The notes under the pieces were generated by a model, which worked only from the letters and a program-made list of their open reading frames with translations, was not told where the DNA came from and did no database searches. 64,000 nt of DNA, from assembly GCA_030295235.1 (NCBI GenBank), contig AP026130.1, forward strand, positions 806,001 to 870,000, given 5' to 3'. Of the stretch, positions 6,014 to 54,299 are shown one piece after another (positions within the stretch are counted from its first letter, which is position 1; each line of letters starts with the position of its first letter). This stretch comes from Fistulifera solaris. Taxonomy: Eukaryota. Both the position numbers and the translations under genes were made by a program.

Positions 6014-6500
6014 TCATACAGAAATTCTGTGGTCGTAGCTCCAGAAATTCTGGACCATCTGCAAACATACAAAAATTCTGTGACAGTCGTTCCAGAAATT
6101 CGGGAATGAATGAATCTGAATTACTGGTACGGTACCAGGTACTTGTATGGGGCAAACAGAGATCTTGTGGTCGTTCCAGAAATTCTGGAATCGGTGCTTT
6201 GGGTCATACAGAGATTCTGTGGTCGTTCCAGAAATTCTGGACTCGGTGCTTTGGGTCATACAGAGATTCTGTGGTTATTCCAGAAATTCTGGACTCGGTG
6301 CTTTGGGTCATACAGAGATTCTGTGGTCGTTCCAGAAATTCTGGAATCGGTGCTTTGCGGGTCAAACAGAGATTCTGTCGTCGTTCCAGAAATTCTGGAA
6401 TCGGTTCTTTGGGTCATACAGAGATTCTGTAATTTATTATTTGGGTCAAACAGAGATTCTGTGGTCGTTCCAGAAAATCCCCGGAATTGGTGTTTGGGTA
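6014..6500. repeat. 52-bp palindromic minisatellite array A
   Basis: Unit cagagattctgtggtcgttccagaaattctggactcggtgctttgggtcata starts at 6157, 6209, 6261, 6313, 6367, 6419 (truncated) and 6451; degenerate copies at 6014-6105. Confidence 0.95.
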
Positions 6501-6567
6501 AAAACAGCGATTAATCTGTTGAAATGCCTTTCAAAATTTTCATTTCAAAATTAACTACCACCTTTTA

Positions 6568-6612
6568 AAAGTGTAGACGACTTTTGCCACGACTGCATTT
6601 CAGTCAAGAGTC
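6568..6612. repeat. Partial copy of the ~210-bp hairpin repeat family
   Basis: aagtgtagacgacttttgccacgactgcatttcagtcaagagt resembles 48641-48683. Confidence 0.75.
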
Positions 6613-6707
6613 ATCGATTTTGCTTCCAACATTATTTTCGCACCCGCAGTCACAACGAGAAGCGACAATGATACAACTAATTTGCACTTTTTATATCATG
6701 AGGAACA

Positions 6708-7838
6708 ATGAAGCGATGCACAGCACGTGAGACCACTTTGTTAGCACTGGGTCTGGGAGTTGTTCTCGTTTCTTTCGCGCAGCTTCATCTGGGTTTGCAA
6801 ACACCTCCGTTTCCTCCCTCGACACTTCTTCATTCGACGTCGCAATCTTACAAAATGAGTTACTCCAGGGCGGAGATTATTCCCCAAAATATTTCTGCTC
6901 ATGGAGGAGGACTTGTACACATAGGAAAGACTGGCGGAAGCACTCTTTCATTACTCTTACGAAACGGCTGTCACTCGTTTATGAGACATCCGTGTTACAA
7001 TATTTCAAACGAATCCCCGGCGAGCCGACTCATTGAAAAATACTATCATGTTCCCGATTTTGGGTTGCTACGAGAATCCCAGCATGATTTTTATGTCATT
7101 ACGGCTCGTGATCCCTTGGATCGAGCGGTTTCGGCCTTTGTCTACGACCATATTCGCAATCGAGACGCACGGAACGAAACCATGGATCCGATGCAACGCG
7201 AGCGCTATGAGGCAGCTTATGTCTGTTTTCCTACATTGGAGGTGTTTGCGGCCTATTTGAAAGGAAATTCGTCGGATTTTCATTATCCGTATCATCGGAA
7301 GGAAGTGCACCCAGAATCCTGCCGCGATTTGGCGCGAGCGGCCTTTCATGGGCATGTTCGAATTTACAGTCACTTGTATTTTAGTTTGGAAAGGATCCGG
7401 TCTTTTATTCCGGGAATAAAGAACCGTGTATTCTTCCTCATTCGCCAAGAAAGACTTTGGGATGACTGGATTCAAACGAATCGTATTTTGCAGGACACGT
7501 ACGGGTTGTCGTCGCAGGATTCCTCGTATGATGTCCCAGTCGAAGCAAGGGAAGACCGTCGCAATTCGACCAACTTGGAAATCAACAATCGACTACCTGT
7601 GGGCAAGACCCTGTCGTCACTTGCAACACAGTCCCTTTGTCGGGCCCTTGAGACGGAGTACACTGTTTTCTTTTGGTTTTTGCTGATTGCAAATAATATT
7701 GACAACGAAGAATTTATGTTCAGTTTGAACAAGGCCAAAGAATCGTGCGGGCGCTATTTGAATATGGATGAAATGATAAGAAAGGAGTCTATAAGCATAC
7801 GAGAAGTCTTCGAACACGGGGTTCGTGTCAGGAAGTAG
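6708..7838 (+). CDS. Type II membrane (Golgi-type) sulfotransferase-like protein
   Basis: N-terminal TM; VHIGKTGGST (5'-PSB-like) and RDPLDRAVSAF (3'-PB-like) motifs. Confidence 0.7.
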   Translation: MKRCTARETTLLALGLGVVLVSFAQLHLGLQTPPFPPSTLLHSTSQSYKMSYSRAEIIPQNISAHGGGLVHIGKTGGSTLSLLLRNGCHSFMRHPCYNISNESPASRLIEKYYHVPDFGLLRESQHDFYVITARDPLDRAVSAFVYDHIRNRDARNETMDPMQRERYEAAYVCFPTLEVFAAYLKGNSSDFHYPYHRKEVHPESCRDLARAAFHGHVRIYSHLYFSLERIRSFIPGIKNRVFFLIRQERLWDDWIQTNRILQDTYGLSSQDSSYDVPVEAREDRRNSTNLEINNRLPVGKTLSSLATQSLCRALETEYTVFFWFLLIANNIDNEEFMFSLNKAKESCGRYLNMDEMIRKESISIREVFEHGVRVRK

Positions 7839-7928
7839 CGAATCAAGAAATTACCTGCAAATTTTGGTGTTATTCAAACACAATGTACACATATTTACAA
7901 GCGAATTTGCAGTTATTGACTATGCAAT

Positions 7929-10900
7929 TCATTGGTTCGGCGGCTTGTCTAGCTGAGTGGACCCAAGTTTCTGTAATTCGGTTCGAATACCCTCGATGTT
8001 TGCCAAGGCGAGGAGCAAGCCTTGTCTTCGGTTGAACGACGCAGCGAAAGACGAGACCATTAAACCATATCGAGCCATTTTATCTGACAAAATAGGGTCC
8101 TGAGACGATTTTGCCATTTCGAGACAGATTTCAGCAATGATTGAATCGCCACAACGTCCCAAACGTCCGAGAAATATATTAACTTCAGATCCGAACTTGG
8201 ACACGGCTCGATTAATCACATAAGCTCCGATCTCGTTAAATCGGATGTCGTTAATTGGTGCCTTGCTGGTCAATTCAAGAAGGACTGACATAGCTTCCAC
8301 GACTTCACCGTAGTAAGGCTGCTTTTCAACATATTGGCGAGCAGCCCCAAAGGGGCGTAATAGTTTCAGTTGCAATATCTCTTTAGCTTGCACGGAATAT
8401 CCTCCGTATTTCAAAACAAAAAGCAACGGATACAGAACAAGAAATGCCTCGCTAGGTCCAGAATCTATGATCGGAACGACTCTTTTCAAAATACTTCGAC
8501 AGATAGACTGGGCTTGTCTCCGATTACCCAACATTTCATGATAATATGCACACAGAGAAAAGCTGGCTGCCCCCGTGTCAAAACCGTATGCTTTCCGCAA
8601 GAGTGTTGTGTGCTTGATTGGCTTGTACATTGTCCTGATAACACTCTGCGCCGCGACGGCTTTTTCCAGGTCGCCTATACGAGCAAAGAGAATCATTTGA
8701 AGGAACAATGAATGTATATGGTGCACCCTTCTGCCGTGTCTTCGCGTTTCTTCGAGAAGCCTGTACAGCATTGCCTGCTCGTAGCACCGTTTCGAATCTT
8801 GCTCAATTTTGCCGTCCGAAAAAGCCCGCGAAAGTCCCATGTACGCGGGAAAGATAATGGATCGGTCCTTAATATCCTGTGCGTTTCTTGCCCTGTCCAT
8901 CACGCGGATAGCATTTGCAAAGGTGATGTAGCTGTTGTGTCGTAAATCGCAAGCCTCTTGGCTCATGCCTAAGCCAACACTAAGTCGAATAATATCGGCA
9001 ATGTCTTCCGCGGCCAGTACTGAAAGAATGTCCGATGAAAACCCACAGTTCTCTTCAAGATCAGTGTTTTGCCAACCGAACATTCCAAGTGAACTTTCAA
9101 ATACCTTGATGGATTCAATGGCTTCTGGGGTCTCTTCTACAAGCGATCCGATCGACAAAGCGACTTTTGCGGCATTGTGCGTAGACCCCGACGATTTCCA
9201 GTGTACAAAAAGTTTAAGCCAATCTTGGAGTGAGGAATCAGCTGATAACCGCAATTCCATATTTTCAGCAGTTTTTCGGTGTACGTCTCTTTGGCGAGAT
9301 CCTAGCATCAATCCAAGAATAGTGGTGCGCCACGTCGATTTGAAGAATGAGAACGTTGTCGAGTCAGAGTTGGCGTCGAAGTCGGCTTGTTTTCCTTTCA
9401 AAACATTGTCTTTGACGTCATGTAAGACTAAAATCCCCTCTAGAACAGCAACCTTGAGTGAGCTCGCCACCTTTTTGCGTACATCTTTCTCCTGTGAATC
9501 TGCTCCGGCCATCAAAACTCTGACAAGGTCGCCAAGTGCAAATTTGTCTCCCAGGACAGCTGCAATGTTCAGCGTTGAGCGAACTTCTACGTCAAGGGCG
9601 TCCACCCGGTGCAAGATAATGTCAGACGTTAACTTTTGTTTTGTATCACCGCGTGCGCTCTCATCGTTCGCTGTTGCATCGACCATCAGGGTTAAAACGT
9701 TCATCGCAAATTGCGGCATGCCTCCCGATTCTAACATTACTTCATGCAGCAGATCAGGAGAAACAAGGTCAACTTTGATGCCTAGCTTCTTGGAAATAAG
9801 AAGACGAATTTCGTCCTCCGTCAGCGGCCCCAAATGAATTTCGAGAAATCTGCCACTGAAAGCGAAATGGTTTTCCATAATTTCCCAGAAATAGTCGCCT
9901 ACTCGAAACATGCTTTTCTCGACTGGTGAAGTGCCGATCAGAATAACATTGTTTGCATAATCCAAAATCCTCTTCAAAATAACCCATGTTAGTTCGTCAG
10001 TGAAATGTACATCATCGATAGCGATGACCACGAGTCCCACATCTTCAATGCAGCGTAAAAAGGCATTGGCGAGAAATGCCGCAACTGCCTTCTTGGGTGG
10101 ACTTTTCCTGGTGGCCAGATCAGCATTTGATTCGAGTAAATATCTAGTCGCGAACTTGACTAGATCAGGCGGAGCTTGGATGTCGCGACCGACACCACGA
10201 ATAGACTCAATCAACTTTGACTGAGAATCTTCAGGTTCATGAGCATCAGACGACTGAGACTCACTATCATCTTCTACGATATTATTGGACGAACTGTCAT
10301 TTGAAGAAAGAGCATATAACCTCATGATTCTTGCGAAAATAGTTTGGAACGTTGCAAAATGGACCAGCATTTCACTATCGAGACAAATGTGATTGATGAA
10401 AACAACTCCTCCGTACTTCTGAGCGTTCAACTCCAATTGTTGTCGAATTGATTCAAGAGTATGGACCAGGAAGCTGGTCTTTCCCATACCAGAAACTCCG
10501 TCCGCGAGAATAAACTTGGATTCAGATTGAGGCGAAATCATTGTATCGTGTGCCAGTTGAACCACCTCGCGGATTTCTTTTTCCCTCCCGACAAAGTTCG
10601 GCTCAAAAGTCCCCCAAGTTCGTTCGGACACACTCATTGGAACGAATATAGGCACAGGTTCGCTATATCCTTTGGCTTTGATTGCTGGCAAAGCCTCGAA
10701 GGCGTACGAGCGTGAAGCCACTTGACGAACTCGGTTATCGACAAGCACCCCTGGGTTATCAGGTGAGTGCATCAAGCGCGCCGCTAAATTGACGCTAGGT
10801 CCCATGACGGCGTACTCGTGTCTCATCGAACCACCCACGGCGCCGCAATAAACGTCACCAAAAGTAGCTCCAATCTTTGCCTTAACACCGAATTTGACTT

Positions 10901-13900
10901 CTAGCGCTTTTTGTATCAGCATTGTGGCTGGTAGAGCCCGCTCTGTAACAAGATTGGGGAATGTGGACCCACGGAGACCAAAAGTAGCTATCATAATAAA
11001 TCCCTTATCATCCACGATGAACTGACGCAAGTGGCCGCTGTAGTGCTTCAATTTGTTGGTGACTAAGTTCATAACATCATTGAGAAGATGAATCACCTCG
11101 GTGTCTTGCTCTAGATCTCCTGATAGATTAATTGGCAAATGCAACTCTATGAACATCACATACACACTGCGTAGTTCAGCCTCCTCCTTCTGCTTGTCAT
11201 TGACAGAACCACCTAGTCCAGCGCTTTCAAAATCATTTGCTGCGGCAATATCATTAGAAACAACGACGGGATGGACATATAATGACATCAAACGCCGGTA
11301 CTCAATCAGGTCGTCGGCTTCTAAACCATCCACCTCTTCAGTCACACCGCGAGACTTTGCATTGCGGACCTTTGTACTGTATCTTGATGTGTCGAAGAAA
11401 CTTCCTGACCGATCTGCAACCAGTAAGGCGTTTTCCGGGTCTAACTTCTGGCGTCCGCATTGTTGGCTTATTATACTTATAAATTCCTCGGAGCCAACGG
11501 CTTCACCAAGCTTGGCTCTATCACAGGCTGTTGTTGCTTGGTCAATGGCATCACCAATGTATAGGTATTCGCGTCTATTGCGATTATCCCCAACATGTAT
11601 TCCATTCATCTGCCCAAATCCTAGACCCAAGTGAATATTTAGGCAATCGACTGTTGACCCTATCAATTCTTGGGCACTAACCAAGGATAAGACAGGAAAA
11701 TCAGTACACTCTGAGATCAATGATGCTGCACATGCTGATGCTTCGGCTATACATTGCTCCTTTGACCTTTTATCAGTAACTCTCCACTCTGCAAAAGAGC
11801 GTCACCTGCAAACTTCTGAATATCACCGGAATACTGATAGATCATTTCTACAATTTTTTGAAAGTAAGAGTTGATCACTTTCGACAGTTTTTCGGGGTCA
11901 AGCACCGTACTAAGCTTTGTAAATCCGGAGATGTCGACAAACATCAATGCACCTTCAAATGTAGCAATTGCTGGAAGTACTCCCCCGTCGTCATCCTCAC
12001 TGCTCGATTGTGCGGACCATGACATTGAAGAAGAAAATGAAGATCGTCGTGAAGGGCGGTTGTTTGCGCCTAAGAAGTCATCCAATGAAGAACAGCTATT
12101 TTCTCCAGAGTCTGGTGTAGAAACTGACACTGACGCTGACTCGCCAGACGCCGAGTCGAGGGAATCTGAAGATATCCGTCTTACCAAACGCCTTCTTGGT
12201 CCTCTGTCTTCTGATCGGTTTTGATCACTGAATGAAGAGTCGATGCTGTCGGCATCACTCGAACTTGCTGCACTATCCGCATTCGAGGACACGTCGGCCA
12301 TTCCATTTATCCTTCTCCGGTTTGGTCGAGAAGCTTCGAACTTGGATTTCGCCTCCTTTTTAGCAATTGATCCCTTATTTCTTGCCCCAAATGGCTGATT
12401 ACGCATGCAGGAATATTGCTTGCAAGATTGTTGATTGAAGCCAAAATGTGCGCTCGTCTCACGAATTTCTCACCTTCCTTGTTGAAAGCGATCATCGTGC
12501 CGACTTTCTGCAACTCCGTTCTGAGGTTGGCTAGCATTGATAGATCCAAACCCTCCCCGCCTCCAAATGGCATTTCTGGCACTGCTGATGTTGGTGGTGC
12601 CGATTCTTGCACAGGGACACGCGGAGGTTTTTCACTCGACCTTCCTAAGGCAATTGGCATAGATGACATCAAGTCATCATATTCGTCATCACTCATATCG
12701 TCTTCGCTGTCGCCATCGGACGATCCGTACGATATTCCTTCACTGCTGTCTGTGTATTCACTATCGTCACTGGAATCAGAATAGTCGTTGCAGTCTTCCA
12801 ATAACTGATCAAGATTCATTGGATTGGCCGGTAGATTGGGTGTTTGAAGATATTCATTAGGAAGAAAAGCATCGTCGTCAGCATTAAATTCATCCTCTTC
12901 TTCAGTTCCTTCCTCAGGATCACTATCACTATCACTATCCTCCTCGTCATCATCTGCATCCACGCCCTCAGTTTTAATTTCTACAAATGAGGACACTGAC
13001 GCGTTCGCTTGTTCGTCGATTTCTTTCATCATCCGCTTGCTTTCATTCTTCGTTTCCGGTGCATTTAATTTCGCCTCACATATATCCGTAGCAGATGTTT
13101 CTACAAGTTCGCTTGTAAAATTCTCGCCGCCATCGTTGTCGACGCCCGACGACAATTCATCCTCGTCGCTTTCAAAACTCTCCTCCAATTCACTGGAGTC
13201 ATCAGACCGATTGGAATCTGTCTCAGCTATACTTTCGTGGTCCAAATCTCGGCTTGCCGGGTTGTCACCGTGATTTGTTTCTTTGTCATAGCTGCCTTCA
13301 GCTGTTTGCATATCTTCAAAATCACCAAGATCCTTACTTTGTTGCGAACAGGGAGTCCATTTTCACCCAGCCCGTCTTCTTTCAAGTCATCGCTGTGCTG
13401 AAGCGGTTGGGTTTGAGGTTGATTTGTGAAGCTAGGCATTTCGCCAGAATTAATTTCGATGCCGCCTGTCTGAGTTGCAATCTGAGAATAGCTATTACCA
13501 GGCTTGTTTTCTGAAACAACGCTTCTTGAAGACGAGTCGTTGAGATCAACCATTGTTTGATTTTCAACAAAAGTTACCGTCGTCTGCGCCGTTACTACAC
13601 TTTCGTCGTCGACACCCTCGCCAATTCTTCGAGCTGTATCCTTTTCAACTGACTGTATTTTTGGTGGGCTATGTGTAATCAGACTTTGTAGTCTCGTGAT
13701 GACTGCTCGTGCTTCCTGAGACGCTTCTGATGAATCTACTTTGCGAGGAGCGGCGGCAACATTTTTGGAACCGTTGTGGAGAGACGGCTTATCACCTATC
13801 CGTTGCAAAGAGCCCTCAAATCATCCACATTACTACTCCCTGTTGTACGACTTTGAGTAGCCTCACCTACAGAGATCGCTTGTATGCCATTCATCGGTTG

Positions 13901-14167
13901 ATCCTTCTTTAACACATCGAACGCCGGCACCTCACCGACTGACGTTTCGGATCGCCACAGTGAGCCGTTCTCGCTTGCCATCAAATCAACACCGAGTAAA
14001 TTTCCGTACTTCGGAAGCCCATCCAGAAGACTCTCCTCTACAAAATAGCGATCGTAATCTAGCGTTGAGATGCTGCGACCAGTCGTTTCGTCGACGCTGC
14101 TGGAATTGGCGTGGCTTTCACTGTGGTCGACATCGTCGTCTCCATTGAAGTTTCCGATAGTATCCAT
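7929..14167 (-). CDS. Soluble adenylyl cyclase (ADCY10-like): long acidic N-terminus, two class III cyclase domains, P-loop STAND NTPase, helical C-terminus; about 2080 aa
   Basis: FVDISGFTKLS, GDIQKFAGDA, QFIVDDKG, HEYAVMGPSVNLAARLM, FVGREKE, GVSGMGKT, IAIDDVHFTD; five ORFs joined by single-base frameshifts near 13808, 13352, 12358 and 11794. Confidence 0.85.
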
Positions 14168-14616
14168 TTCAGAATCTACCGCCAGCAAATACCGCGCTTG
14201 ACGAAGAAACTTGTATTCGACTAACCGCAGCTGATGTAGGTGTTCTTTTCAAAGTGAAATGGCCTCAAGCTCAAGCTCCCTACGCTTCATTTGCGGATGA
14301 ATATTTCATGCCATGCATTTCTATCATTCGACATCGCTTCATCATTCGGTCTTTTGGAAGCAAATGAGGCCAAAAGAAACACTATACAAGAATTAGTAGG
14401 TTTGATTACCGTGCCATTGTGCCCAAATGCGCGAATCTTTCAAAAATGGGGTATGGACGAAAAAGTAGAAACTGGCACATTCACCGCTGACGTAGGCGTT
14501 CTTTGTCCTCAAAAGACATAAGACCACCACACACCACATACCTACCTTTTTCTGCAAATGACTTCCTAGAAATGGGGACTCGAGACTCGAGACCTCAAAT
14601 GGCTCGACTAACGTTA

Positions 14617-17658: not shown

Positions 17659-17960
17659 TTCGTTCGGTCGTAAAATGCCACGTTATAAGTTTCATTTAGC
17701 AAGGAATTAGCATGAGTAAGGACTGTATTCATGTATTGTTTTCGTCCAATTTACTACGAAGAATGCTATAGGTCCGTTAGTTTTTTATCCTTTGCGTCGA
17801 ATGTTTTCCATCTCGTGAATTTTTCGTGGTTGTGCCTGCTACCCATCTCCGCACAACGCACGTGCTTATGGCGTCATCACATACCCAGATTATCTGGGAG
17901 TGTGGTGTTTTCATGTTCCCAGCAATTCTGGGTGAGTGTTTCAACCACGTATTGATTCGT

Positions 17961-18441
17961 GACTCATGACTGAAATGCAGTCATGGTTTTCTAAAACTAA
18001 CACTTTGGGTCCATAGTAAATACGGAAACAACGCTTCGCAAGTCTTTTCGACGTATAACATAATGACGTGTAATGAAAACGCTGCTAAAGATTATTGCTT
18101 GGCGACAAAAACAAATTGAGCTCAAGATACATTGCTGAACGAACTAGTTGTAGGTAGCATTGACGCTCGAAAGAACATTTTTTTACTGAAGCGCAGTCGT
18201 GGCGAAATACGGACAACACTTTGGTCTATAGTAATACGGAAGACAACGTTTCGCAAGGCTTTTCGACGTGAAATACAATAACATGTAAATTAAACGCTGA
18301 CAAATACTATTGTATTGCAACAACGAGAAATGAAACTCAATTTGAACGAATGAATTGTAGGCAGGATTGACGCTCGAAAGAATACAGATTCATGACTGAA
18401 ATGCAGTCGTGGATAAATGATCTTACACTTTGGAGTATAGT
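17961..18441. repeat. Tandem ~210-215-bp repeat (about 2.2 copies) with GACTG-aaatg-CAGTC hairpin
   Basis: actgaa(at/gc)gcagtc at ~17969, 18185 and 18395, each followed by acactttgg...atagt; shared ttcgcaag and ttgacgctcgaaagaa blocks. Confidence 0.9.
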
Positions 18442-18606
18442 CAATAAATTTTTATTTATTTAGAATCAGACAGAAATTCTGAATTGCTACTCCGTAGTTC
18501 TGCGCGAAGAACAACAACAAAAAAAAAAAAACAATAAGATCTACCGCTTGGTAGGATCTCTAGATATCAGTAACTCGAACGTTGTTGTTTGCATCAATTC
18601 CCTCTG

Positions 18607-19590: not shown

Positions 19591-19858
19591 CAAACCCTTT
19601 TTTTGTTGAATCTGATAGGAGCCATGTACACTAGATCCTTGTTTCTTTCAACATAATGTAGCTAGCTTTGAAGTGCGGAATGAACAGTATGCTAAGACGA
19701 TTGCTTACTCCTCTTGTGTCGTAACTTAATTGGCGTTCATACAATCTCAGCAACTACGTCGACTGAATGCCCTTTCTCAAAAAAATAACTAGCCTTCTTC
19801 GAGACGATTGCTACGGATTCTTCTATTAGTTTGATCACATTGTACTATAAGATTGAAT

Positions 19859-36793: not shown

Positions 36794-37087
36794 TGTTATA
36801 TTACTTTGGAGATAGTTAATGGGAAGGAGCACAAGAAAATGATTATATTTGTTGGGTCGACATTTGCATCTGTGATGACTTTGGCCATGGTCGTTTTGGC
36901 AACCGTGTTTTTTTTTTCGTCCGTGGTTTTGGCCGGACGGGAAAAAACTCGAACGACGCGTGCCAGCCTTGTACTGCTAAAGACACAGTATCACAATCAA
37001 TGACTGTGATCATGGAGGTGACGTCATAAATGACAATTAGAACGAATGAGTGCATAGCTCGCATGAGTAAACGTAGCTAGAGTTTTC

Positions 37088-37578
37088 TGGAGACGGTGTT
37101 TGGGATAATAACGAAAGAAAATGCGCGCTCCAGAAATTTTGTAAACTGTATTTTGGATGATAACGAAAGAAAGTGCACGTTCCAGATATTCTGGATAGGT
37201 TACTTCTGTCACACAGAAATTCTGTGGTGGTCCAGAAATTCTGGACCACTTTTTCCGATCTCACCGAAATGCTGTGCGCGTTCCAAATAATCTAGAGACG
37301 GTGTTTGGGATAATATTGAAAGAAAGTGCACGTTCCAGATATTCTGGAAAAGTGACTTCTGTCATACAGAAATTCTGTTGTGGTCCAGATATTCTGGACC
37401 AGTTTTTCCGTCTTACCGAAATGCTGTGCTCGTTCCAAAAATTCTGGAAACGAGAAAGGACGTTAAAATTTACGCCAAAAACAAGTTCCTGGCATCGGTC
37501 GAATGGCAGAATTTTAACGTCGTTTCCCGTGTTTGGGATAATAGCTACAGAAAGGGCGTGATCCAGAAATTCTGGAAA
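37088..37578. repeat. ~51-bp palindromic minisatellite array B with 153-bp higher-order unit
   Basis: cca(g/a)a(a/t)a(t)t core at 37130, 37182, 37232, 37283, 37335, 37385, 37435; near-identical blocks 153 bp apart; isolated copy at ~37563. Confidence 0.9.
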
Positions 37579-37785
37579 GGTTTAGTTTATAGTGATGAGA
37601 CATGTATTTCGGAGTATTAGAAAAAATAAGGAATACGCCTTCTCCAAATTTTATTTATTTATTTTTTGCTTGTTTATATCATAAAAAAGCCTCATTTATG
37701 TCAACCGAGTAAATGCTTAGCAACATACTGACTAAAAGGACGCGATCCTAAAGATTCTTGTCATCAGAGCTTTGATTTATCATCT

Positions 37786-38729
37786 TTAGTTCCCAGTAGT
37801 CATCAATTTGAATTGCTTCAATACGACATTGCTATCTTTCAAGAACATCTTGACTTTAGGGTTCGCTTCCTCGATCATATGGGCTTGCTCCAAAAGACAA
37901 AATTGCTCGAAATACTTGTGCAGCCGACCATTCACAATCTTCTCCAAAATCTCGGGCGGCTTGTCCGAGTCACCCATTTGATTGCGCAAGATGTCTTTTT
38001 CTTTGGTAAGCTCGTCCTGGGGAATATCATCACTACTCAAATAGGTGGGACGCGCTGCCACCACATGCATCGCCAAACGCTTGCCAATTTCTTGTAGCTT
38101 TTCCCGCGATACGCTTCCGGGCTGACGGGGTGCGACTTCAACCACCGCCGCCGCGAAACCCGCATCTTTCCCATCGACGCGGTTGTGAACATAGCCAACA
38201 AATATTCCTTCCGCTTCGGTTGCTTCGAATTTGAAGGCCTGTTTGACAGAAATATTTTCTCGAATGGCCACGACCGCTTCGTCCAGCAATCGCTGGACAC
38301 TGTCGGCTTGGAACGATTCTTCATGACCCAGTGTTCCCGAGGCCACTTTGGTCACGAGTTCGACAAACCGAGCGGAAAGGGCCGCAAAATCGGTTTCACA
38401 CGCCACTTGCACCAACGATGCGGATTTTCCATCGGAAGCTACTTGCAGTCCAATCAATCCTTGTGTCGTCTCTCTGCCTTGTACTTTCGAAGTGGCTTTG
38501 GCGGCGCCATGCTCGCGCAACCAATCCAGGGCCGACTGCACGGCGCCGTCGGTACTTTGCAAGGCCTTTTGCATTCCACAATCGGAGCACCCGTTAAAGA
38601 CCGTAACTCTTTCAGTGCTTCCATCGAGAAACCAGCCGAAAAGTTACAGCGCTGTTGAAATCGATGCAGCGATTTCGTTCGCGATGCGCAGCGCAAGAGG
38701 ATGGACGAAAATCGTTGTGTGGTGGACAT
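37786..38729 (-). CDS. tsf: Translation elongation factor Ts, mitochondrial-type
   Basis: LKELRSLTGAPIVECK(K)AL, CETDFAA, IRENI, LAMHVVAARP, KPPEILEKIVNGRL; presequence; frameshift ~38568. Confidence 0.9.
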
Positions 38730-41032: not shown

Positions 41033-41225
41033 GCATGTTTCGCTCACGCCAATGCATCCATGACGACATGGAGAGCTTTTGCAAGTTGAGTATTGCCATG
41101 CACCGAAACTCTTCCTCGCAAGCGCGAATCGACGACCTCAATTCATAATTCAAATATCATATAGAAATGGCAGCTAACCCCTTGAAATGGTCCCCTAACT
41201 AATTAGTGAGATTTTCAAATACCAA

Positions 41226-42986
41226 CTACGCATTATTTTCGGTAGGTGGAGGGTCTGCAGAAGCAAATGGACCCTGAGTTGGCCAGCCATTACCTTCAGA
41301 ATACATATTCTCGAGCTCATTTGCGGGGTCAAAAAGCTGAGCGAAGTCCAAGTCCATATCATCTGCATTTGCACCCGAGTCCATCATACTCCAGTTAATG
41401 CTGTCCAATTCAATAGTCGTCGGAGTCTGTGGAGCGTCCGCAGAAACGAGAGGAGGTGGTGGATGCAATCCTTGCGACAAACGACCGGCCACCGTCGCAC
41501 TTTCTGCCACCATACCCGCCGCAGCTAAAGAGCTCGCCTGACGATCTCTTTCGGAGAGGTCCTCCGGTGGACGATAAAGACCAGGCATCGCCGACAAAGC
41601 CGAAGTGGATCTCGACTGAGGCGCAGAACTTCCCATCAGCATCGACAAACCCGTCGGCGGTGCAATATTAGAACTTCGTTGGCTAGTAGACATTGATCGA
41701 AAATCCGTGTGCAAATCAGCAGGTGGCTCACTTATGGACGCAGGTCTGTCGAAATCGGTTAGAAGTGAAAATAATCGAAGACAATAAATAACAAACTCGG
41801 CACTGACCTTCCAAGTAGCGATGGCATTCTCGTCGGTGCACTTTGAGATAACACTGGGCCATCCAAGGAAAAACTACCGGGACTAGACTCAGGATTCAAA
41901 AGAGGGGATGAGATGGAACCACTTCGCCCCCGCATTTGAGGCGAGGCACCCTTTGCTTTGTTCGCTTCATTTGTAAACATCGATCAGGATGATCGCGATG
42001 AAACAGTTCGTGTCGGTAAGCTCCGGCGTCTTGTCCCTTTGTTATCCTTCGAAATCCATACCTGCAAAATAAGACATGATGTGAGGCCAATAATTTGAAC
42101 CACCAAACAACACATGTCGAAAACAAGTAACTGTTAAATCTTACAGATTGAGCTGCCTCTGAAATGATGTCAGTTTGGTATGTCGAAAGTATCGCTGCAG
42201 AATATCATTCACAAAACGCTCCGGATCGCGAACAACAAAGCCATCACCGCTGGGCAAAAATGCTACCACGCTTTGATCTTCTTTGTTGAGCATGTCCATG
42301 AGCTTACGCGGAAAAGGATTAGAGCCAGAACTACCCAGAGCTGGAGACGAGGTCGCTGAGTGGGTCGGAGAATCTTGGTATGTGCTGGCAGAAGAGGATG
42401 CTCGACGGAGTCTTCGAGTCACCGGAGAATTTTCCACTAAAGAGCCCTCGCTGTTTCTACTTCTCAAAAGAGTCGCATTCGGCAAGACTCCGGTGATCGG
42501 GTTGACAGCAATTACACCAGCAGCACCGCTACCTGCTGGAAGCATAACAGCCCCCTGTGTTGGAACGGAAGTCGCCGCTGGCTGCATTGGTTGCTCAGAC
42601 GGTTTCCCTTCGTCATTATGATTGTTGGCCATTTCAAAATTTTTCCTCAGTGAAGATTGCTGTCTTGCCTTTTCCTGAGCGGCACGAAAGCCCGCCAAGT
42701 ACATAGCTCGTAGTTGCGCCTCTCTATCCGCATCACCCGCTGGAACGGTCCCAGATGTCACTCTCGATTCCGACTGAATGGAAGCGAGTGCGGCATCCAT
42801 GGAATCGCGTAGAGCCGAGAAATCCATCGTGTCATTCGGCGATGACGCTAAATTGTCGTTGTCATCCACAGACTGATCCGAGCTTGACCTTGCTGTTGGG
42901 TCTGGTACAGAAAATTGCCCGGTCACAGGTGTGGTTGCATCATTGTTGCCATTGCTGTAAGTAGTGCTCGTTTGTTGATGATTCAT
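41226..42986 (-). CDS. Heat shock factor-type transcription factor
   Basis: FPRKLMDML...[22 protein letters not shown]...YRHELFHRD; introns 42062-42144 and 41746-41807; frameshift ~41953. Confidence 0.92.
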
Positions 42987-43856: not shown

Positions 43857-44378
43857 ATGTCTGAGGAAGAAGTCGCCGCCGCCGCCCCCCGAGGTTGTCG
43901 AAGAAGTCGAATTGAGCGTCTTGGATGCTCTCAAGCAGGTAAGAAAAATATGATACAGTGACTCCCGTCAGGGGGGATGACCTGCTATCGTTTACTCATA
44001 TACATCATCATTTTCCTTCAATAGGTCCTTCAAAAGTCCATGATCCATGGTGGATTGAAGAAGGGTCTTCACGAGTGCGCCAAAGCCCTCGACCGTCGTG
44101 CCGCCCGTCTCTGCTGCTTGGCCAAGGACTGCGAAAACGACGAGTACAAGAAGTTGATCAAGGCTTTGTGTGCCGAGGGCGAAGTCCACGTTATTATGGT
44201 GGAAAGTGGCAAAGATTTGGGTGCTTATTGCGGTCTTGCCAAGCTCAACGAAGATGGCACTATCAAGAAGGCTGTGCGAACGTCGTGCGCCGTTGTCACC
44301 GATTTCGGTGAGGAGACACGCGCCTTGAGTGTTCTTTTGGACTTCTTGCAAAAGCACGCCGACGGTGCTGAGATCTAA
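43857..44378 (+). CDS. RPS12: 40S ribosomal protein S12 (eS12)
   Basis: ALKQ|VLQKSMIHGGLKKGLHECAKALD; intron 43939-44024; extra C in run ~43885-43890. Confidence 0.95.
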
Positions 44379-44521
44379 AAAATGTAATGATAGATGCACT
44401 ACGTTTATCTTTTCATAGCAAGTTTTTACTTCAATTGTTTGGTTCAAATATCTCAAAATCCAGTCCAAGGTTAATAGTCTATAAGTTCAAATCTAGTAAC
44501 CAAGGATTGATTGGTAATACG

Positions 44522-47500: not shown

Positions 47501-48133
47501 TGTGCTTTCACCGACCGAAGATGTATTGGAAATGGTGCTGGCATCGTCCGAGATGGACTGATAATTGGGGACCACGACAATGAGAAAGTTCGGTGGCGTT
47601 TCGTTGTTTTTAAATTCAGGGTTAGCTTGTAATTGACTGACAAAGATTTGAATCGAAGGTTTCACTTTGAGCCGATAATGCTCGAGACTGTGACATTCCG
47701 CCAGATATACATAAGTCATGGGATTCTGATGCCATTCCGATGCATCTTCCGCTCGATCGACCATGAGAATACCTCCATGACTCACGGTCGGCTGCAGCGA
47801 AAATTCGGGGATGGTAATGGACTCTCCGGTACGGATGTTCTTGTAGGGTATATCTTTCAGCGTGTTTTTATCATCGCGTAACAAGATCTTGGTGATCTTT
47901 TGATAAAGCTCTAAATGGCGCGATGCATCGGCGGCTCGGGGTGATTGAATTCTTCCCGAAGCAGCAGAAGTTGGATCGAGAAAATGAACAGATACTCTGG
48001 ATCGGGGTACATCATTGTCAGTGTCCGTTGATGATTCATTGTTGAGATAGGCAAAGCCGCGATTCAGATGTTCAAGAAATAAGTTGTCTTGATCAAAGTA
48101 AGTAGCCGACGCGGTAGGTGGATCTGCGGGCAT
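44522..48133 (-). CDS. TRAPP II subunit TRAPPC10/Trs130-like
   Basis: YFLVKESMAFSYEQCQLYADALVQYEEL motif; beta-rich C-terminal half; 1203 aa. Confidence 0.7.
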   Translation of the reverse strand: MPADPPTASATYFDQDNLFLEHLNRGFAYLNNESSTDTDNDVPRSRVSVHFLDPTSAASGRIQSPRAADASRHLELYQKITKILLRDDKNTLKDIPYKNIRTGESITIPEFSLQPTVSHGGILMVDRAEDASEWHQNPMTYVYLAECHSLEHYRLKVKPSIQIFVSQLQANPEFKNNETPPNFLIVVVPNYQSISDDASTISNTSSVGESTSSGAKSRVAAFASRVAAARHRISGTAGSAEELGGGGNNSSDDELDVIVATDSPIRQKTKLERDLLRKMHADFPSARVCALAALAREETPPLLEWESFLSALGATIVDNLHDKCRNYEEVLKKVSADHRQYFLVKESMAFSYEQCQLYADALVQYEELRAMLPDWDKQSAKRGLTTNYMSLPIALRGDPFAFRQHICAAASIAEVAYELEYYLLMRETTHLFAVKDANAVLQRCLGFARKMWQVQEGRAGNDTKQLIEVNKWGLEFGWVVKEATYSYTEKPNFEDKAFSATLCELMGFTRLRLLKMGKLMEIPVTPNLGGQDFPSDLKADAEWAPWSEPTNSSREDPEEASLRNNANVVADALSTKEGFEWMYMSLTKLLAANQEASGKKRLASCLRIEAIDIAIKQNRLRTAAQELFKVAQECEDWKSCYFFLLFRLCQLQRQFEPGTKYLETLVCCFGAPHAPPKARDVVFRDLLAVISGCDTTTTLSGAPLFQTIVSLDEFELSAANGTERKLFKRVYTIGDTVTVKIIVTSQLPEDVKVGSLSISLVPFRSYVAAMEDNIEVKETEVFSELQLSDVTVKPGRNEYQYKWVPNQSGQFILSAISMSWNNVKFVYSPKKRKQPTIRVDVIPCEHSQMLTVAPNYLIPGHTQNLLLKFSSGKDTIIQGKAQLVGSPGIFVGKQDDDTLLSALEIDLNSTSADSIVSIPIKVQCADNGGGGVLKVQTNTQFCRDQGEEFEAQLELSVPALGQTGFVIKDITVIPYRSDRLVLHAAFECHAPKSFLVREWKIELPAYLKLTADLNETLASTDVYCGETIMLNFECRVTGDVPNTVKATVVLVFDNEEGVAFEESHTLRQACPKMPLPLAEMPPVSVNLMPSVTQGIVGRPVQIKCIVDVAGLNGQDVRYKVASDASDWIISGRTEGLLPENAELELVGIPTRPGSLSSYVHLSLRRNGYELPISISQPGPFQASDPPRHSAAAYPFNGTSEVGI

Positions 48134-48629
48134 ATTGGTTAGTCAGTTCTTAGTAGTGAGACGAAAGACGATGAAAGAATAATCACATGTCTCCGTTTCA
48201 AGCGTCAAAGTGTCGGCGTATCATGGTCGCAATAGAAGTCGCCGACGAACGGTTGCAACTTTCGTGCGGTGACATGTCGCAGTGGGCTCTCAAGCTAGGT
48301 CTATGTAAACGGCCGCCACGATGACAAACAGAAAACACACAACGTAAAAGACGAGACGCGCAGAGCATAGAATGCATACCCAACTCACAATCCTTACTAT
48401 CTCGAGCATCAATACTTCCATTACAGGTTTTTAGGGGTTCCGTATAATCGGACCGCGACTGCAAAAAATATTCCGGCCCAGATTGATACGTAACCCTCGC
48501 TCGTTCTCCCAACCTGATAAGCTAAAAGAATTGTCTTCAACCCAAGTCAACTTCCTTCACCATGCAATACACGCCTCAATAATAATTCATTATGTCGAAA
48601 AGCATAGGATATCGTGACTAAGTTATGCA

Positions 48630-48894
48630 CTATAGACCCAAAGTGTTGTCCGTTTTCACCACGACTGCATTTCAGTCAAGAGTGATGAATCGTTTCCGAG
48701 CCAGACTGCTACCTAATCTTCGTTCGTTCTGCAAGCTTTGTAAAGCTAATTTTGTCTTCATGCCAAGACAAAGCATTCGCTAAGACCGTATCGATCCGTG
48801 ACGTCGAATGTGTTGGGGATCGCTGACTTCCGTATCTACTATATACCCAAAGTGTTGTCCGTTTCTCACCACGACTGCATTTCAGTCATGAATC
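48630..48894. repeat. ~210-bp hairpin repeat family, inverted relative to the 17961-18441 array
   Basis: tata(g/t)acccaaagtgttgtccgtt(t/tc)tcaccacgactgcatttcagtca occurs twice, about 210 bp apart. Confidence 0.9.
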
Positions 48895-49324
48895 AAGGCT
48901 ACGTATAATAACCTTCACTCGTTCTCCTTATTTGCAAACACATTATACATTTGTCTGTACCAGATATCACAAATAGACTTACTTCAACAACAAAAGCATA
49001 ACCCCTCTTGTGTCATGATGTCGAAAAAGGCTTGGGTTTGGGTTGTGAATTATTTTTGTAAAGCAGCAAATATCGCAGTGAGAGCCATGTACACTGACGT
49101 AGAAAGTGTTGTCATTATTTTTACGCGGCGCTGACAATAAAAGAAAAACAAACACGAACGCGGAAAACAGAAAGGTCGAAACATTCAATACAATGTAAAT
49201 AGCCTTCATTATAAAATAACCAGCAGTTGCCATTCTACAGGAGGAATAACATAAGAATCGAGGGCTATACGTCTCAGCTACAAATTTCAGTTCAATTGGA
49301 AAGCTTCCGCACCATCAGACGACC

Positions 49325-50113
49325 ATGGCGGCGGACCATTTAGATACACGCGAAAAATCCAAAGAGCTAGAAACACTCTATGCTACTGTCCTCGTGTTCG
49401 GTGCACTGACAGCATTGATTTTTACATTCTTCATACGACCCATGTTTCGTCATATTCCCGCCACTACTGCGTCGAACGCCGATACTACCAACACGACGAC
49501 GCCCCGCGCCCCAACCAACAACTCCTTCGGAACGATCGTGAGCCAGAAATTAATGGCTTGTCGACCCAGTCACGTCTCCTCCCAAGGTGATCCTTCTTCG
49601 TTACTGAATACCGAAAGCTGGATGATTTCGTGGCAACATTGTCGTGTCTCGCAAGTGACGTCCGACGAGGTAACGCGCAAGGAACGGGCCCGTCTCCTGT
49701 CACGGCTGTTACACGACCATCCGCCTCTCAAAGGGAGCACGGTGATTCTCGGGGTTCCTTCCAACGATATCGAATGCCTTTTATTGAAACGGGCGGTGTA
49801 TTTGTTGGCCACCTATTACAATTTAGTTCTCTTGGTTGCGACAGAACACGAGGATCGTACCACATTGCTGTTGCGACTGCGAGGAGAAAACATTGTGACG
49901 GCAGATGTTTTACCGGATCATCGTGTCGTACGGACAGGGAGTCCTTCAGGACGAGTGGCATTTTGTCGACAAGTCCAACGTGTGGATTGGGTCTCGGATT
50001 TTGAGAAAGAAGTACAAGATCAGTTAGTACGATTTGGTTATAGGGTTGTGTTGTACGGGACCGAACCAGCGGTGGAGGGCGTATCGAAGCTTGGACAAGT
50101 TCTGCGATCATAG
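49325..50113 (+). CDS. PEX22-like peroxisomal membrane protein (tentative)
   Basis: N-terminal TM; HRVVRTGSPSGRVAFCRQV...DW resembles the plant-type PEX22 C-terminal motif. Confidence 0.45.
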   Translation: MAADHLDTREKSKELETLYATVLVFGALTALIFTFFIRPMFRHIPATTASNADTTNTTTPRAPTNNSFGTIVSQKLMACRPSHVSSQGDPSSLLNTESWMISWQHCRVSQVTSDEVTRKERARLLSRLLHDHPPLKGSTVILGVPSNDIECLLLKRAVYLLATYYNLVLLVATEHEDRTTLLLRLRGENIVTADVLPDHRVVRTGSPSGRVAFCRQVQRVDWVSDFEKEVQDQLVRFGYRVVLYGTEPAVEGVSKLGQVLRS

Positions 50114-50354
50114 AGTAGCTGGAGATTGGGAATAAACTCGTTTTAATGCTAAGTTAACCATAAAATACCGTTACAGCAATCGCTCATGTGACTCGCAGGG
50201 TTACATCAATCTCAACTTTCACTATCGCTTCCAGCACGAAGAGAAGCGCAGCTTGCTGCCTAAAGCTATAAACTATTAAAGCTCATTAATCTCTCAAAGT
50301 ATGATTAAATGCCATGCCGTTCGTCAAAGATCAGAAAAGTGGTAGCTAATAGAG

Positions 50355-51155
50355 TTACTCCTCTTTCGGCTCCGTTTGTTCTTCCGAAGTGGAAAGTCCA
50401 GCTAATGCTGCAGCGGCTTCATCGGCAACACCTTCCGCATCCTCAGCGTCTTTTCCTCCCAACAATTTCTCCATTTCACTCTGGCACTCGAGAAATTTGT
50501 CGCGAAACTCATTGGCTATGTCCGAGTCGCCAAAACGAATCGCGAAAATGGTTTCCTTGAGTTCTCCTTCCGCAAAATCAAAGGCCGACCAAACCCAAGA
50601 TCGATCACTGCCCACATTGGGCTCCAATTTGATTTTGGGGTCTACTACATGGTTGGCAATCACCTTCATTGTCTTTTCTTGACGCATCAACAATCGGATT
50701 TTTTGATGCTCCCGATGTTTCAACAATCGCACTTCACCAATGCCTCGTTCGCGCCACGTCTTGTTGCCCGTACCTTGGTCAAGCAAAGTTTCGCCGTAAA
50801 TGAAGAGCTTGGAACGCTTCGTATAAAGTACTTCCTGCAATGTTTGTCAGAGCGAATGTGAAGGATGAGTCGAGCGACGCTTCGAAATTAACTCCATATC
50901 ACAACAAAAATAAGCTTACCTCCTCTTCTTCACCAGATTTGACTTCTACTTCCTCGAGCTTTACCTGAAATCAATCACAAAATATACGGAACAGTGTTTG
51001 AGAAAAGGAATTCATTATTGAATAGCATGGACGGGGAAACCACTCACCACCGGCTCGAACGTTGCGGTACTCTCTTCCTCCTTGGCGGGGACATCATCAC
51101 CTTCTTCCTCTTCTCCTTCCGCAGGAACTGTCTTTGGTTCGTCTTCTGCACTCAT
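50355..51155 (-). CDS. RANBP1: Ran-binding protein 1
   Basis: FEPVVKLEEVEVKSGEEEEEVL, WRERGIGEV, RLLMRQEKTMKVIANH, SDRSWVW; introns 50965-51047 and 50835-50919. Confidence 0.95.
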
Positions 51156-51407
51156 GATTGTTGTATTGGTTGTTGATATTGTCGTTGACAAAAAGGGTTA
51201 TATCCACAGCGATGATGGGCGGGCCGCCTTCCTTGTTTATGTGGCTCATCGTGATCGGCGCCGTCGATACCTATTATTAGCGCATTTTCGCTGGACGTGA
51301 AAAATCTACGAAAACGTTCGTACGGCGTATGCGTGTCAGGTCATGCCTGTAGGGAATCCGGAATTTTGAAGAATTGTTTTTCTATTTCAATAGAAAAACT
51401 CACGTCT

Positions 51408-51742
51408 CGGCACGTGCACAGAAAAAAGTGGGGGTGTGCTTTTTTGACGTGTCCAGAGAATGTGGGAATTGGGAATGTGCTTTTTTCACGTGTCCAGAGA
51501 ATGTGGGAATGTGCTTTTTCATGTGTCCAGAGAATGAGGGAATGTGCTTTTTTCACTTGTCCAGAGAATGTGGGAATGTGCTTTTTCATGTGTCCAGAAA
51601 ATGTGGGAGTGTGCTTTTTCACGTGTCCAGAAAATGTGGGGGTGTGGGTTTTCACGTGTCCAGAAAATGTGGGGATGTGTTTTTCACTTGTCCAGAAAAT
51701 GTGGGGATGTGCTTTTTCACGTGTCCAGAAAATGTGGGCGTG
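51408..51742. repeat. 33-bp tandem array C (ttttcacgtgtccagaaaatgtggg..tgtgc), about 9-10 copies
   Basis: ccaga cores at 51453, 51494, 51527, 51561, 51594, 51627, 51660, 51692, 51725. Confidence 0.95.
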
Positions 51743-51838
51743 TGCGGCTTCGTCCGCAGACTGTAATCTGTGATCTTTCAAAAAATCGAAGAGCTTATTA
51801 CTCGGAGCAGTACTATTATACTAACATACAATGGTACC

Positions 51839-53095
51839 ATGGCTGTGCGAGGCATTGCCAATCCTACAGGAACTTCTTGTCACGTCGGTAGCGCTCTCCT
51901 AATGCTCAAATATTGCCTGGAGCCACTCGCGTCCCAAATTGGGGCCGACGCCGCCGAAAATGCTGTGACGGATGACGTTGTTCACGTCGTGGGGCAGTTT
52001 ATTCGGCATCACGATACGAATGTGAAGCTGTTGTTCGATACGTTACGCAGCGGAATAGGTATTGAAGCGAAAGATCTGGGCGATGTCATTACGACTTTTA
52101 TGAAATTGATCAACTATTTTTGTCAGCTCACGAAGGAAGACGACGACGACGAACACCGCGACACAAAATCCACCCTATCATCGATATGGAATCAATGTTG
52201 CAACGCAGGAAAGGTCCATTCGGTACTGCTGGGAAACGTCAAAGGAGACGTCGGATGCTCTGGTGCATTACTTCGTAAGGAAACGAAACCTAGGTCTATG
52301 CCAGTTCCATTCCTAGTACATGTGTCAAGTCGGAAACAACTTTCACTCGTCGATGTGATCCGCGATACTCTTCAACCAAAAGTGGTCAAGGACTATGTTT
52401 GGGAAAATCAAAGCAATTCGTGTCTAGACGTACAGACATCGAGGACATTAGTTATCGACAATCTGCCTCCGGTGTGGCTTCTTCATCTCGATTGGTTTGC
52501 ATCATCACCCGACGGAGAACATGACTTTGGCACACTTTGCGTACCATCCAAATTCATGACACATGAAATACTCGACACCAATGATACCAGTAGTTACTAT
52601 GAACTCATTGGCGGAGTATTATTGTCTCAAGCCCATGATGAGGAAATTATTGACGAACGCGATCGGCGACACTATATTCCACTCATACGCAAAAACAACG
52701 TTTGGTATATGCTGGACGACGATGAAGAACCGCAAGAAGTGTCTGAAGAGCGCTGTCTCGAATTATTTGGCGGCGTCTCGCACGGTGAAGAATCGCTGTT
52801 TCGAGACAATGGCGAAACGGTCTCGGTCCGTGGATACTTGTTGGTGTTCCGTGACCCATCGCAATGTGAAAAACTGTGTTTCCTTCCCGACCAACTCCGA
52901 AATCCGTCCTGTATTGATTGGACCCTTCCGAATACATTAGTGGGACGTCGATTGCGCGTCGAATGGGCCAAAGGAAAACGTTATGAGGGAGTTGTCACCT
53001 CCTACAATGAGACGACGGGCAAACATCAGATTCGGTACGACGATGGCGACGTTAAAGAGTACGTCCTTCGGAAAAAGACAATCGAATGGCTTTAA
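51839..53095 (+). CDS. Divergent USP-type ubiquitin hydrolase with C-terminal Tudor-like domain
   Basis: Cys box GIANPTGTSCH; His box HYIPLIR...WYMLDD; LVGRRLRVEW...YEGVVTSY...HQIRYDDGD. Confidence 0.65.
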   Translation: MAVRGIANPTGTSCHVGSALLMLKYCLEPLASQIGADAAENAVTDDVVHVVGQFIRHHDTNVKLLFDTLRSGIGIEAKDLGDVITTFMKLINYFCQLTKEDDDDEHRDTKSTLSSIWNQCCNAGKVHSVLLGNVKGDVGCSGALLRKETKPRSMPVPFLVHVSSRKQLSLVDVIRDTLQPKVVKDYVWENQSNSCLDVQTSRTLVIDNLPPVWLLHLDWFASSPDGEHDFGTLCVPSKFMTHEILDTNDTSSYYELIGGVLLSQAHDEEIIDERDRRHYIPLIRKNNVWYMLDDDEEPQEVSEERCLELFGGVSHGEESLFRDNGETVSVRGYLLVFRDPSQCEKLCFLPDQLRNPSCIDWTLPNTLVGRRLRVEWAKGKRYEGVVTSYNETTGKHQIRYDDGDVKEYVLRKKTIEWL

Positions 53096-53132
53096 CAGCT
53101 TTGTGTTATATGAAATCAATTAATATCAGGGA

Positions 53133-53880
53133 TCATTCTTTCTGTGCAAGCTCGACAGGTAGTATTCCGGCACCCGTAATCTTCACGGCCGCGGATGGTC
53201 GTCCCGATGAACTTCCACAATCTTCAATTTTCTTGACGACATCCCATCCTTCTTGCAAGCTACCAAACACGACATGACGTCCATCTAAATGCGGAGTACG
53301 TGCCGTGGTGATGAAGAATTGTGTCGTGTTGGTGTTGCGACCCGCGTTGGCCATGGACAATACGCCCGGTCCTACGTGTTCCAGGATAAAGTTCTCGTCA
53401 TCGAACCTCATGCTGCTCGAAGTGGGCACAATTTGTCCACCTTGGATCATGAATCCCTTGTAATTGCGTATCAGATGTTACTCAAAATGCAAATAAGGAT
53501 GACATCCATACAATTAGTTTAAAACTTACCGGAATAATCCGATGAAATTGAGTTCCGGCATAACCTTGATGACAATATTTTTGAAAATTAGCCACTGTTT
53601 TGGGAACAAGATCACCATAGAGTCCGAGAACAATGCGTCCCGCCGGCTGGTTGTCAATCGATACATCGAAATACGCTTGCGACGTGACTTGTGCGAGTGG
53701 GGCCACCGGTCCCGCATTCGTTTCCTCATACCGCCACGATTTATCATTCAAATAATTCGCTACTACAGCAAATGTGGTGCCGACTGTCGCAAAGGTGGCG
53801 AACTTCCACAGCAACGAGCTTGTTTTCGGGTTGCTCGACGAAAACGATCGTGCGGTGGTCGCGCCGAAGGACGGGCTCAT
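53133..53880 (-). CDS. Cyclophilin-type peptidyl-prolyl isomerase with presequence and TM segment
   Basis: YFDVSI, VPKTVANF, FHRIIP|GFMIQGG, SMANAGRNTN, LDGRHVVFG; intron 53457-53529. Confidence 0.9.
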
Positions 53881-54032
53881 TCGTAAGTAAATTGCTCGTT
53901 GCGTCCTTATCATTTTACCGTCGAGTACCAGTACTTTGTCTTTACACAAGAAAGGCTATGGACTGTTTGATCTTGTTGACAATAATCACCGCGTGATACT
54001 ACGATGATCGAGGTCTCCGTAAAATTTTCTGG

Positions 54033-54299
54033 AATGAAATACAACTGGTCCAGAATTTCTGGACCACCCCAGAATTTCTGTATCAATGAAATGCAACTGG
54101 TCCAGAATTTCTGGACCACCCCAGAATTTCTGTATCAATGAAATGCAACTGGTCCAGAATTTCTGGACCACCCCAGAATTTCTGTATCAATGAAATACAA
54201 CTGGTCCAGAATTTCTGGACCAGCCCAAAATTTCTGTATCAATGAAATGCAACTAAAACACACCGTATTCAGATTTTCTGGAAATTACACAGAATTTCT
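54033..54299. repeat. 52-bp palindromic minisatellite array D (reverse orientation to A and B)
   Basis: cagaatttctggaccaccccagaatttctgtatcaatgaaatgcaactggtc at 54051, 54103, 54155, 54207. Confidence 0.95.

Follow-up and report, generated by a model that had tools for sequence, protein, structure and literature searches.

A dispersed palindromic minisatellite family in the diatom Fistulifera solaris and its association with putative Helitron2/HLE2-type elements

Arrays of one short palindrome recur at several intergenic sites in 64,000 nucleotides of the Fistulifera solaris genome (GenBank assembly GCA_030295235.1, contig AP026130.1, positions 806,001 to 870,000 of the forward strand; this whole stretch is called the window, and positions are counted from its first letter). 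This raises the question of what spread these arrays and what maintains their palindrome and period. A preliminary description of the window, made from the letters alone, had read them as phased binding sites for a dimeric protein, belonging either to a non-autonomous mobile element or to a promoter or chromatin platform. We found that all arrays belong to a single family of dispersed, non-coding minisatellites, whose ancestral monomer of 52 bp has diversified into monomer types and higher-order repeats. A subset of the family forms the central cargo of recently moved non-autonomous Helitron2/HLE2-type elements, which entered sites between a purine and a T without a target-site duplication (TSD). 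The arrays probably behave as mobile repeat DNA that is carried in part by such elements, with the copies in the window being lineage-specific, standalone and end-less. The copies in the window are as follows.

6012..6500, plus strand: array A, ~8 copies of the 52-bp unit, in each of which a strong palindrome, a linker, a weak palindrome and a short linker follow one another
6227..6241, plus strand: example of the strong 7-1-7 palindrome in array A, with further copies at 6040, 6091, 6175, 6279, 6331 and 6385
18469..18483, no strand assigned: isolated degenerate copy of the palindrome
37080..37580, plus strand: array B, in which three diverged monomers (50+50+53) form a 153-bp higher-order repeat, with ~2 copies of this repeat and eroded units besides
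37459..37521, no strand assigned: small inverted-repeat element (~63 bp) inside array B, from another repeat family
51435..51745, plus strand: array C, a 33-bp minisatellite that has a palindrome half-site and part of the linker in common with the 52-mer
54027..54299, minus strand: array D, 4.3 near-identical 52-bp monomers with eroded ends, the monomer lying on the minus strand

In each unit, a linker of 17 bp separates a strong 7-1-7 palindrome (TCCAGAA-A-TTCTGGA; TCCAGAAATTCTGGA) from a second, weak one, which is followed by a linker of 5 bp. Tandem Repeats Finder (TRF) returned a period of 52 at 6148-6430 in array A (5.4 copies, 92%) and at 54033-54254 in array D (4.3 copies, 97%), and the 153-bp three-monomer repeat at 37151-37439 in array B (89%). 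The higher-order repeats of the family measure 153, ~204-215 and ~311-315 bp. Sequence and TRF confirmed the motif and the three arrays first located at 6014-6500, 37088-37578 and 54033-54299, and TRF together with the linker alignments confirmed that arrays are more alike internally than between loci. The reported spacing of 20 and 32 bp between strong and weak palindromes held for array A, but array D had 19 and 33 bp on the minus strand. An 11-mer core gave 55 strand-matches in the window with at most one mismatch, compared to 2.1 expected, and none of 100 shuffles reached this number. By inspection, the 33-bp unit of array C is a deletion derivative of the 52-mer. Pieces similar to the ~63-bp element within array B were present in four of the loci fetched from the genome (L123, L076, L153 and L048; L and C numbers are our labels for loci and contigs). 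A CRISPR-like or coding reading of the arrays was rejected, as the units are homologous throughout, and an open reading frame (ORF) across array A was dismissed as a by-product of the repeat. The surrounding DNA is gene-dense, and diatoms are among the best named matches of its RPS13.

The linkers had been described as different spacers, which would leave only motif and spacing conserved. Aligned pairwise, they were identical at 25/37 positions between A and B1, at 25-26/38 between A and D and at 26/37 between B1 and D, and 0/200 shuffles scored as high; only linker B3 aligned with B1 and with D no better than shuffles did. The linkers of A, B1 and D are therefore homologous and diverged from one ancestral linker, and the conservation of unit length exceeds that of a neutral indel model modestly at most.

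The three or four loci in 64 kb had suggested a large family, and a genome-wide motif scan agreed: the palindrome had 2,545 exact matches in the 51.7-Mb genome and its reversed control had none. The first 100 matches on contig C1 represented 20 loci, and extrapolation from ~5 matches per locus gave a family size of roughly 500 loci. Locus L071 had 0 matches in Rfam, and no description of this repeat family was found in titles and the openings of abstracts, although the species tables of HELIANO may list diatom HLE2s.

BLAST with array A led to long arrays with common flanks, and these flanks proved to be the two ends of a transposable element. It starts with the 5′ end (TCCGAAAAGTT), followed by a module of 680 bp and then by the array; the 3′ end combines the inverted repeat with a GC hairpin and terminates in CACAA. 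The ends were identical in the six complete elements, which measure 3.7-5.7 kb, and the TSD was 0 bp in 6/6. Five of the six aligned at 93.8-99.5% in blocks that ran through the array (e.g. 97.8% over 2,970 nt), and because such near-identical blocks cross the array, it moves as cargo. A purine preceded 22/23 of the 5′ ends (17 A, 5 G) and a T followed 29/29 of the 3′ ends, with the insertion boundary readable one base to either side since element and target both offer a T. At the paralogous empty site for element L072 the intact junction between A and T of another repeat was restored. The homoeologous sites of L071, L073 and L115 also carried no element, but were too diverged to give base-exact junctions.

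The terminal inverted repeats are asymmetric, with GAAAAGTT at the 5′ end and its complement ~25 nt in from the 3′ end; they match perfectly over 8 bp and at 9 of 11 positions. The 8-bp repeat is shorter than the 11-18 nt that HELIANO looks for, according to the part of its description used here. Between the inverted repeat and the 3′ end lies a predicted stem-loop with 5-7 bp stems (-3.8 and -4.8 kcal/mol), and the stem was kept with a variable loop across 14 end variants. The 3′ ends read CACAA, rarely TACAA or AACAA. The 3′-end pattern had 25 genome matches and its control 0. The 12-letter 5′-end pattern had 39 compared to 33 in the control, and most of 20 previously unplaced matches were due to chance. 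Such ends adjoined 52-bp arrays at 14 loci, 7 of them with both ends (one truncated) and 7 with the 3′ end only; L103, L117, L118 and L121 were excluded because there the end lies inside or between arrays. In 14/14 end-bearing loci the array was antiparallel to the element. The same ends also enclosed 33-bp arrays or no array.

Side observations were made on elements and repeats around these loci. A non-autonomous HLE2 family of 1.57 kb was present in six copies (L114, L115, L119, L120, L122 and L123), 98.5-99.2% identical and all between A and T. A ~425-bp tandem repeat common to L108 and L144 lies close to a variant 3′ end of HLE2 type. Another family of dispersed repeats, which has CACGACTGCATTTCAGTCA as its core and contains a ~220-bp tandem duplication, occupies 48620-48890, 17950-18440 and 6585-6610 of the window; its depth was raised in sequencing runs X1 and X2, and the HLE2 copy L072 is inserted in one of its members.

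The arrays of the window could be matched to this cargo to different degrees. Over 96-99 nt, two units of array A had 92% identity with the cargo carried by elements L070/L071/L072, and array D was up to 84% identical to element cargo. For array B, identity to the end-bearing loci fetched was 72-84%, with the highest value at L103, which is ambiguous. Array C was 80-86% identical to 33-bp arrays beside HLE2-type ends in L092, L093, L098, L104, L105 and L111. The suggestion of a non-autonomous mobile element is supported, as the same monomer is cargo of near-identical HLE2-type elements elsewhere; the window arrays themselves carry no element ends.

A second copy of the region in this hybrid genome served as a control. 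The whole window has a colinear counterpart at C12:762665-825700, with long blocks 80-90% identical, and the homoeologous contig pairs found were C3/C4, C11/C12, C19/C20, C32/C33 and C36/C37. In the alignments, arrays A, B, C and D were all missing from the homoeolog while the adjoining promoter sequence was kept, and neither the monomer nor the 33-bp core was present in 70 kb of the homoeologous C12 region. Gain of the arrays in one lineage would be a simpler reading of this comparison than loss. A 16-letter variant of the motif had 16 matches on the first-named homoeologous contigs versus 4 on their partners, hinting at a subgenome-biased spread. With respect to the assembly, a contig of run X2 spanned 37373-37896, which takes in part of array B, with 0 other letters and 1 gap, although one of the runs may be the source of the assembly. 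Summed depth in contigs of two runs was ~775-1,030 at arrays B and D versus ~7-47 in unique bins. Among the joints shown for contigs of four sequencing runs there was no clean skip across an array.

A candidate for the autonomous partner was traced by a weak match to DUF6570 (PF20209), which sections of PMC11417382 describe as an HLE2 marker. The 8.2-kb element, at ~68919-77128 of contig C36 (L146:1920 to L147:1129), has the same ends and is absent at the homoeolog. Ten of its 34 listed ORF pieces were scanned against Pfam, and they matched, in order, DUF6570, Helitron_like_N, PIF1 (twice), Pif1_2B and UvrD_C_2, each below the curated cut-off. Full-length relatives of 1,839-1,942 aa carry PF14214, PF05970 and PF20209 together, the best with 56% identity (E 4e-73). 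The element is accordingly annotated as a decayed, predicted DUF6570-Rep-PIF1 element with the same ends as the array carriers. Genome searches with PF14214 and PF05970 gave no match, which were false negatives, as the gene was later found via PF20209. An AP-endonuclease domain was matched neither by the 10 scanned pieces nor, going by their Pfam lists, by the full-length relatives. L118 contains a deletion derivative of the element (84-92%), and the 1.57-kb family keeps a remnant homologous to its DUF6570 region.

In Helitrons, RepHel nicks the DNA, one strand is displaced and closes into a circle, and this inserts with no duplication, according to parts of PMC5148889. By the same route, a diatom RepHel acting in trans would nick the element end, peel off and circularise one strand and paste it at a purine-T site. 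Truncated or end-eroded products, followed by unequal exchange within the locus, would then leave short end-less arrays like A, B and D, a step to which we give about an even chance. Local unequal exchange would also build the higher-order repeats and homogenise each locus.

Several results weigh against this origin of the end-less arrays. The C36 gene is frameshifted, and this decayed element was the sole RepHel copy found in the genome; neither it nor the 1.57-kb derivative family carries an array. End-bearing arrays are known at 14 loci among several hundred. Element ends were nearby in 0/37 motif-picked arrays, the window's included (arrays of at least 150 bp from 34 of 40 loci), and neither the 5′ nor the 3′ end had a match in the window. 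The flanks of the window arrays had no match among fetched loci. An all-against-all BLAST of the flanks of the motif-picked arrays revealed no common ends, just other small repeats. The junctions of the window arrays were not clean insertions either, with ~100-250 bp of homoeolog-only sequence unaligned at each, and at L103, L117 and L121 element ends sit inside arrays. Since the autonomous element has no array and ends lie inside arrays, the repeat may predate its capture.

Some of these results are what would be expected of a minisatellite that spreads by itself, its arrays reaching intergenic sites through break repair, ectopic gene conversion or extrachromosomal circles. HLE2 would then merely have captured one array, giving rise to ~14 loci that are irrelevant to the window copies. 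The missing ends in the 37 arrays, the unaligned host sequence at all four window junctions, the three loci where ends have inserted into arrays and an autonomous element that is free of arrays all favour this explanation, which we regard as a real possibility that falls somewhat short of even. In contrast, the 92% identity of array A to element cargo argues for carriage by elements, as does the gradation of loci with both ends (7), with one (7) or with none, which resembles that in oysters in the portion of PMC11136912 used here. Unalignable intergenic gaps of similar size also occurred at sites without arrays, so the ends at array loci could have eroded.

The other candidate origin was a platform of phased binding sites, selected by the host as a promoter or chromatin organiser for a putative dimeric protein, possibly with heat-shock-factor sites as in Caenorhabditis Helitrons. 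The palindrome was more conserved than the linker, as the preliminary description had proposed: pairwise identity was 0.75 in the palindrome (15 bp) versus 0.53 in the linker across 140 monomer types, which had been clustered on columns other than the linker columns of this test (bootstrap difference 0.18-0.25). Variation within loci was also lower in the palindrome than in the linker in 36/38 arrays, and was 0.034 versus 0.060 without CpG columns. Most arrays in these tests were found through the motif, so that some bias remains. Conservation of this kind is compatible with a host platform, as are the intergenic position of the arrays, with A and C each between divergent ORFs, and the spacings of 20, 32-33 and 52, which lie near helical multiples. 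However, at the corresponding promoters of the homoeolog the arrays are absent (4/4 cases), which disfavours a promoter platform, and arrays are carried as transposon cargo. A heat-shock-element array was rejected, as arrays A, B and D contained 0 runs of three contiguous inverted nGAAn units.

The period gave a similarly divided answer. The proposed period of 50-52 bp agreed with the TRF value in arrays A and D but was not fixed, as neighbours also lay at 53-55 and 100-110 bp. Among 687 neighbour pairs of strong palindromes at most 130 bp apart genome-wide, counts dominated by young copies, 477 were at 50-55 bp (278 of them at 52) and 89 at 100-110 bp. Monomer lengths fell within 1 bp of 52 in 49% of 213 types. 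A neutral model using the local indel:substitution ratio (165 indels and 1,006 substitutions in 5,762 aligned non-ORF bases) predicted 37% (32-43%), an excess that would suit a host platform, but at half the indel ratio it predicted 58% and the excess vanished. The period appears to be mostly inherited by descent, being kept mainly because units are copied whole. Taken together, we consider a host-selected platform very unlikely. The slower change of the palindrome would instead point to a sequence-specific constraint on the repeat's own copying, through hairpin formation or a binding protein, and not on neighbouring host genes; the palindrome may be kept because it aids this copying or binds a protein. 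As a separate observation, the window has an ORF at 42141-42986 on the minus strand, which ends in what we take, from its apparent motif, to be a heat-shock-factor DNA-binding domain.

A constraint on copying could also mean that the unit itself is a minimal, end-less rolling-circle substrate. The palindrome hairpin would be nicked by the diatom HLE2 RepHel or would end strand displacement, and arrays would then form circles and insert again with no need of transposon ends. The analogy is with the REP/BIME repeats of bacteria and their HUH transposase. With its flanks, the conserved palindrome folds at a predicted -9.2 kcal/mol, its half-site resembles the terminal repeat of the element by eye, and arrays ended just after the palindrome in 19/45 cases versus 7.8 expected. 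However, alignment bias at a conserved block would be expected to produce such an enrichment of ends, and none was seen for starts (10 versus 7.8). Compensatory change was weak, with 271 one-sided and 46 two-sided changes, 20 of the 46 being complementary. Of the pairs flanking the palindrome, only the first was above shuffles (0.70 versus 0.63), with relatedness among the sequences uncontrolled. The unclean window junctions also argue against direct reinsertion, and we regard it as quite unlikely that the unit is a RepHel substrate. If true, it would be a eukaryotic counterpart of REP/BIME and would explain hundreds of lineage-specific, end-less arrays that retain the palindrome; without this mechanism, the family is an ordinary transposon-associated minisatellite.

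These results connect a hitherto unclassified repeat of a diatom with a named group of transposons, for which ends, target site and a candidate transposase partner are defined. As each locus comes with its own homoeologous control, the genome allows direct tests of what an array does to the gene beside it and of how arrays without ends are spread. In animals it is an open question how tandem repeats borne by Helitrons turn into standalone satellites; in this diatom, standalone arrays are in the majority and a constraint on the palindrome can be measured.

Comparison with known systems draws on parts of the papers cited, beginning with diatoms, in which rolling-circle repeats were reported at class level (bioRxiv 10.1101/2025.04.19.649686). 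The end-bearing elements share with HLE2/Helitron2 the asymmetric terminal inverted repeats, the 3′ stem-loop, the absence of a TSD and a predicted DUF6570 Rep-helicase in the partner, but insert between a purine and a T instead of at the T-T site usual for HLE2. With HLE1 and canonical Helitrons they share the 5′ TC and the A-T target, while their 3′ end reads CACAA in place of CTRR. They differ from Helentrons proper in that no AP-endonuclease was seen after the helicase in the scanned C36 pieces or the relatives. A MITE (miniature inverted-repeat transposable element) or other cut-and-paste element was rejected, as terminal inverted repeats at both extremities and a TSD were lacking. This mixture of HLE1 and HLE2 traits, as read from the sequence, has precedents. 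FoHeli1/2 of Fusarium oxysporum combine a TC start with asymmetric repeats, and the proto-Helentron of Phytophthora combines an A-T target with an HLE2-type protein; like the diatom elements, these Helitron2/HLE2 members have asymmetric terminal inverted repeats, a 3′ stem-loop and a DUF6570-Rep-PIF1 transposase (PMC11417382, PMC5148889, PMC4067079). The likeness is drawn from descriptions of those families; the diatom 3′ end is CACAA, and in the parts of these sources used here FoHeli and proto-Helentron are not described as carrying minisatellites, unlike the diatom elements. In Caenorhabditis Helitrons with tandem heat-shock elements, too, a rolling-circle transposon has spread arrays of a short dyad rich in GAA/TTC (PMC6927752), but the diatom arrays A, B and D contain no canonical three-pentamer heat-shock element.

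The closest systems are Cg_HINE of Crassostrea gigas and DINE-1/HINE of Drosophila, non-autonomous Helentrons with central tandem repeats (PMC7492417, PMC4067079, PMC11136912). Like these, the diatom elements are non-coding, with a 5′ terminal and a 3′ subterminal inverted repeat, a 3′ hairpin and no TSD. They likewise hold a central satellite-like array in a fixed orientation, and related ends are combined with different arrays (here 52-bp, 33-bp or none). Element-borne, one-ended and standalone forms occur in both. In contrast, the diatom elements target purine-T and not T-T, have a shorter inverted repeat (8 perfect bp, 9 of 11) and have a partner in which no endonuclease domain was seen, and the window arrays A, B, C and D lack the flanking element ends of a HINE. 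Standalone arrays are also the large majority in the diatom (37/37 sampled) compared to 5-10% in oysters (PMC11136912). On this comparison, the family is best described as a putative HLE2-associated minisatellite that resembles the central repeat of a HINE and that occurs here as end-less, subgenome-specific arrays.

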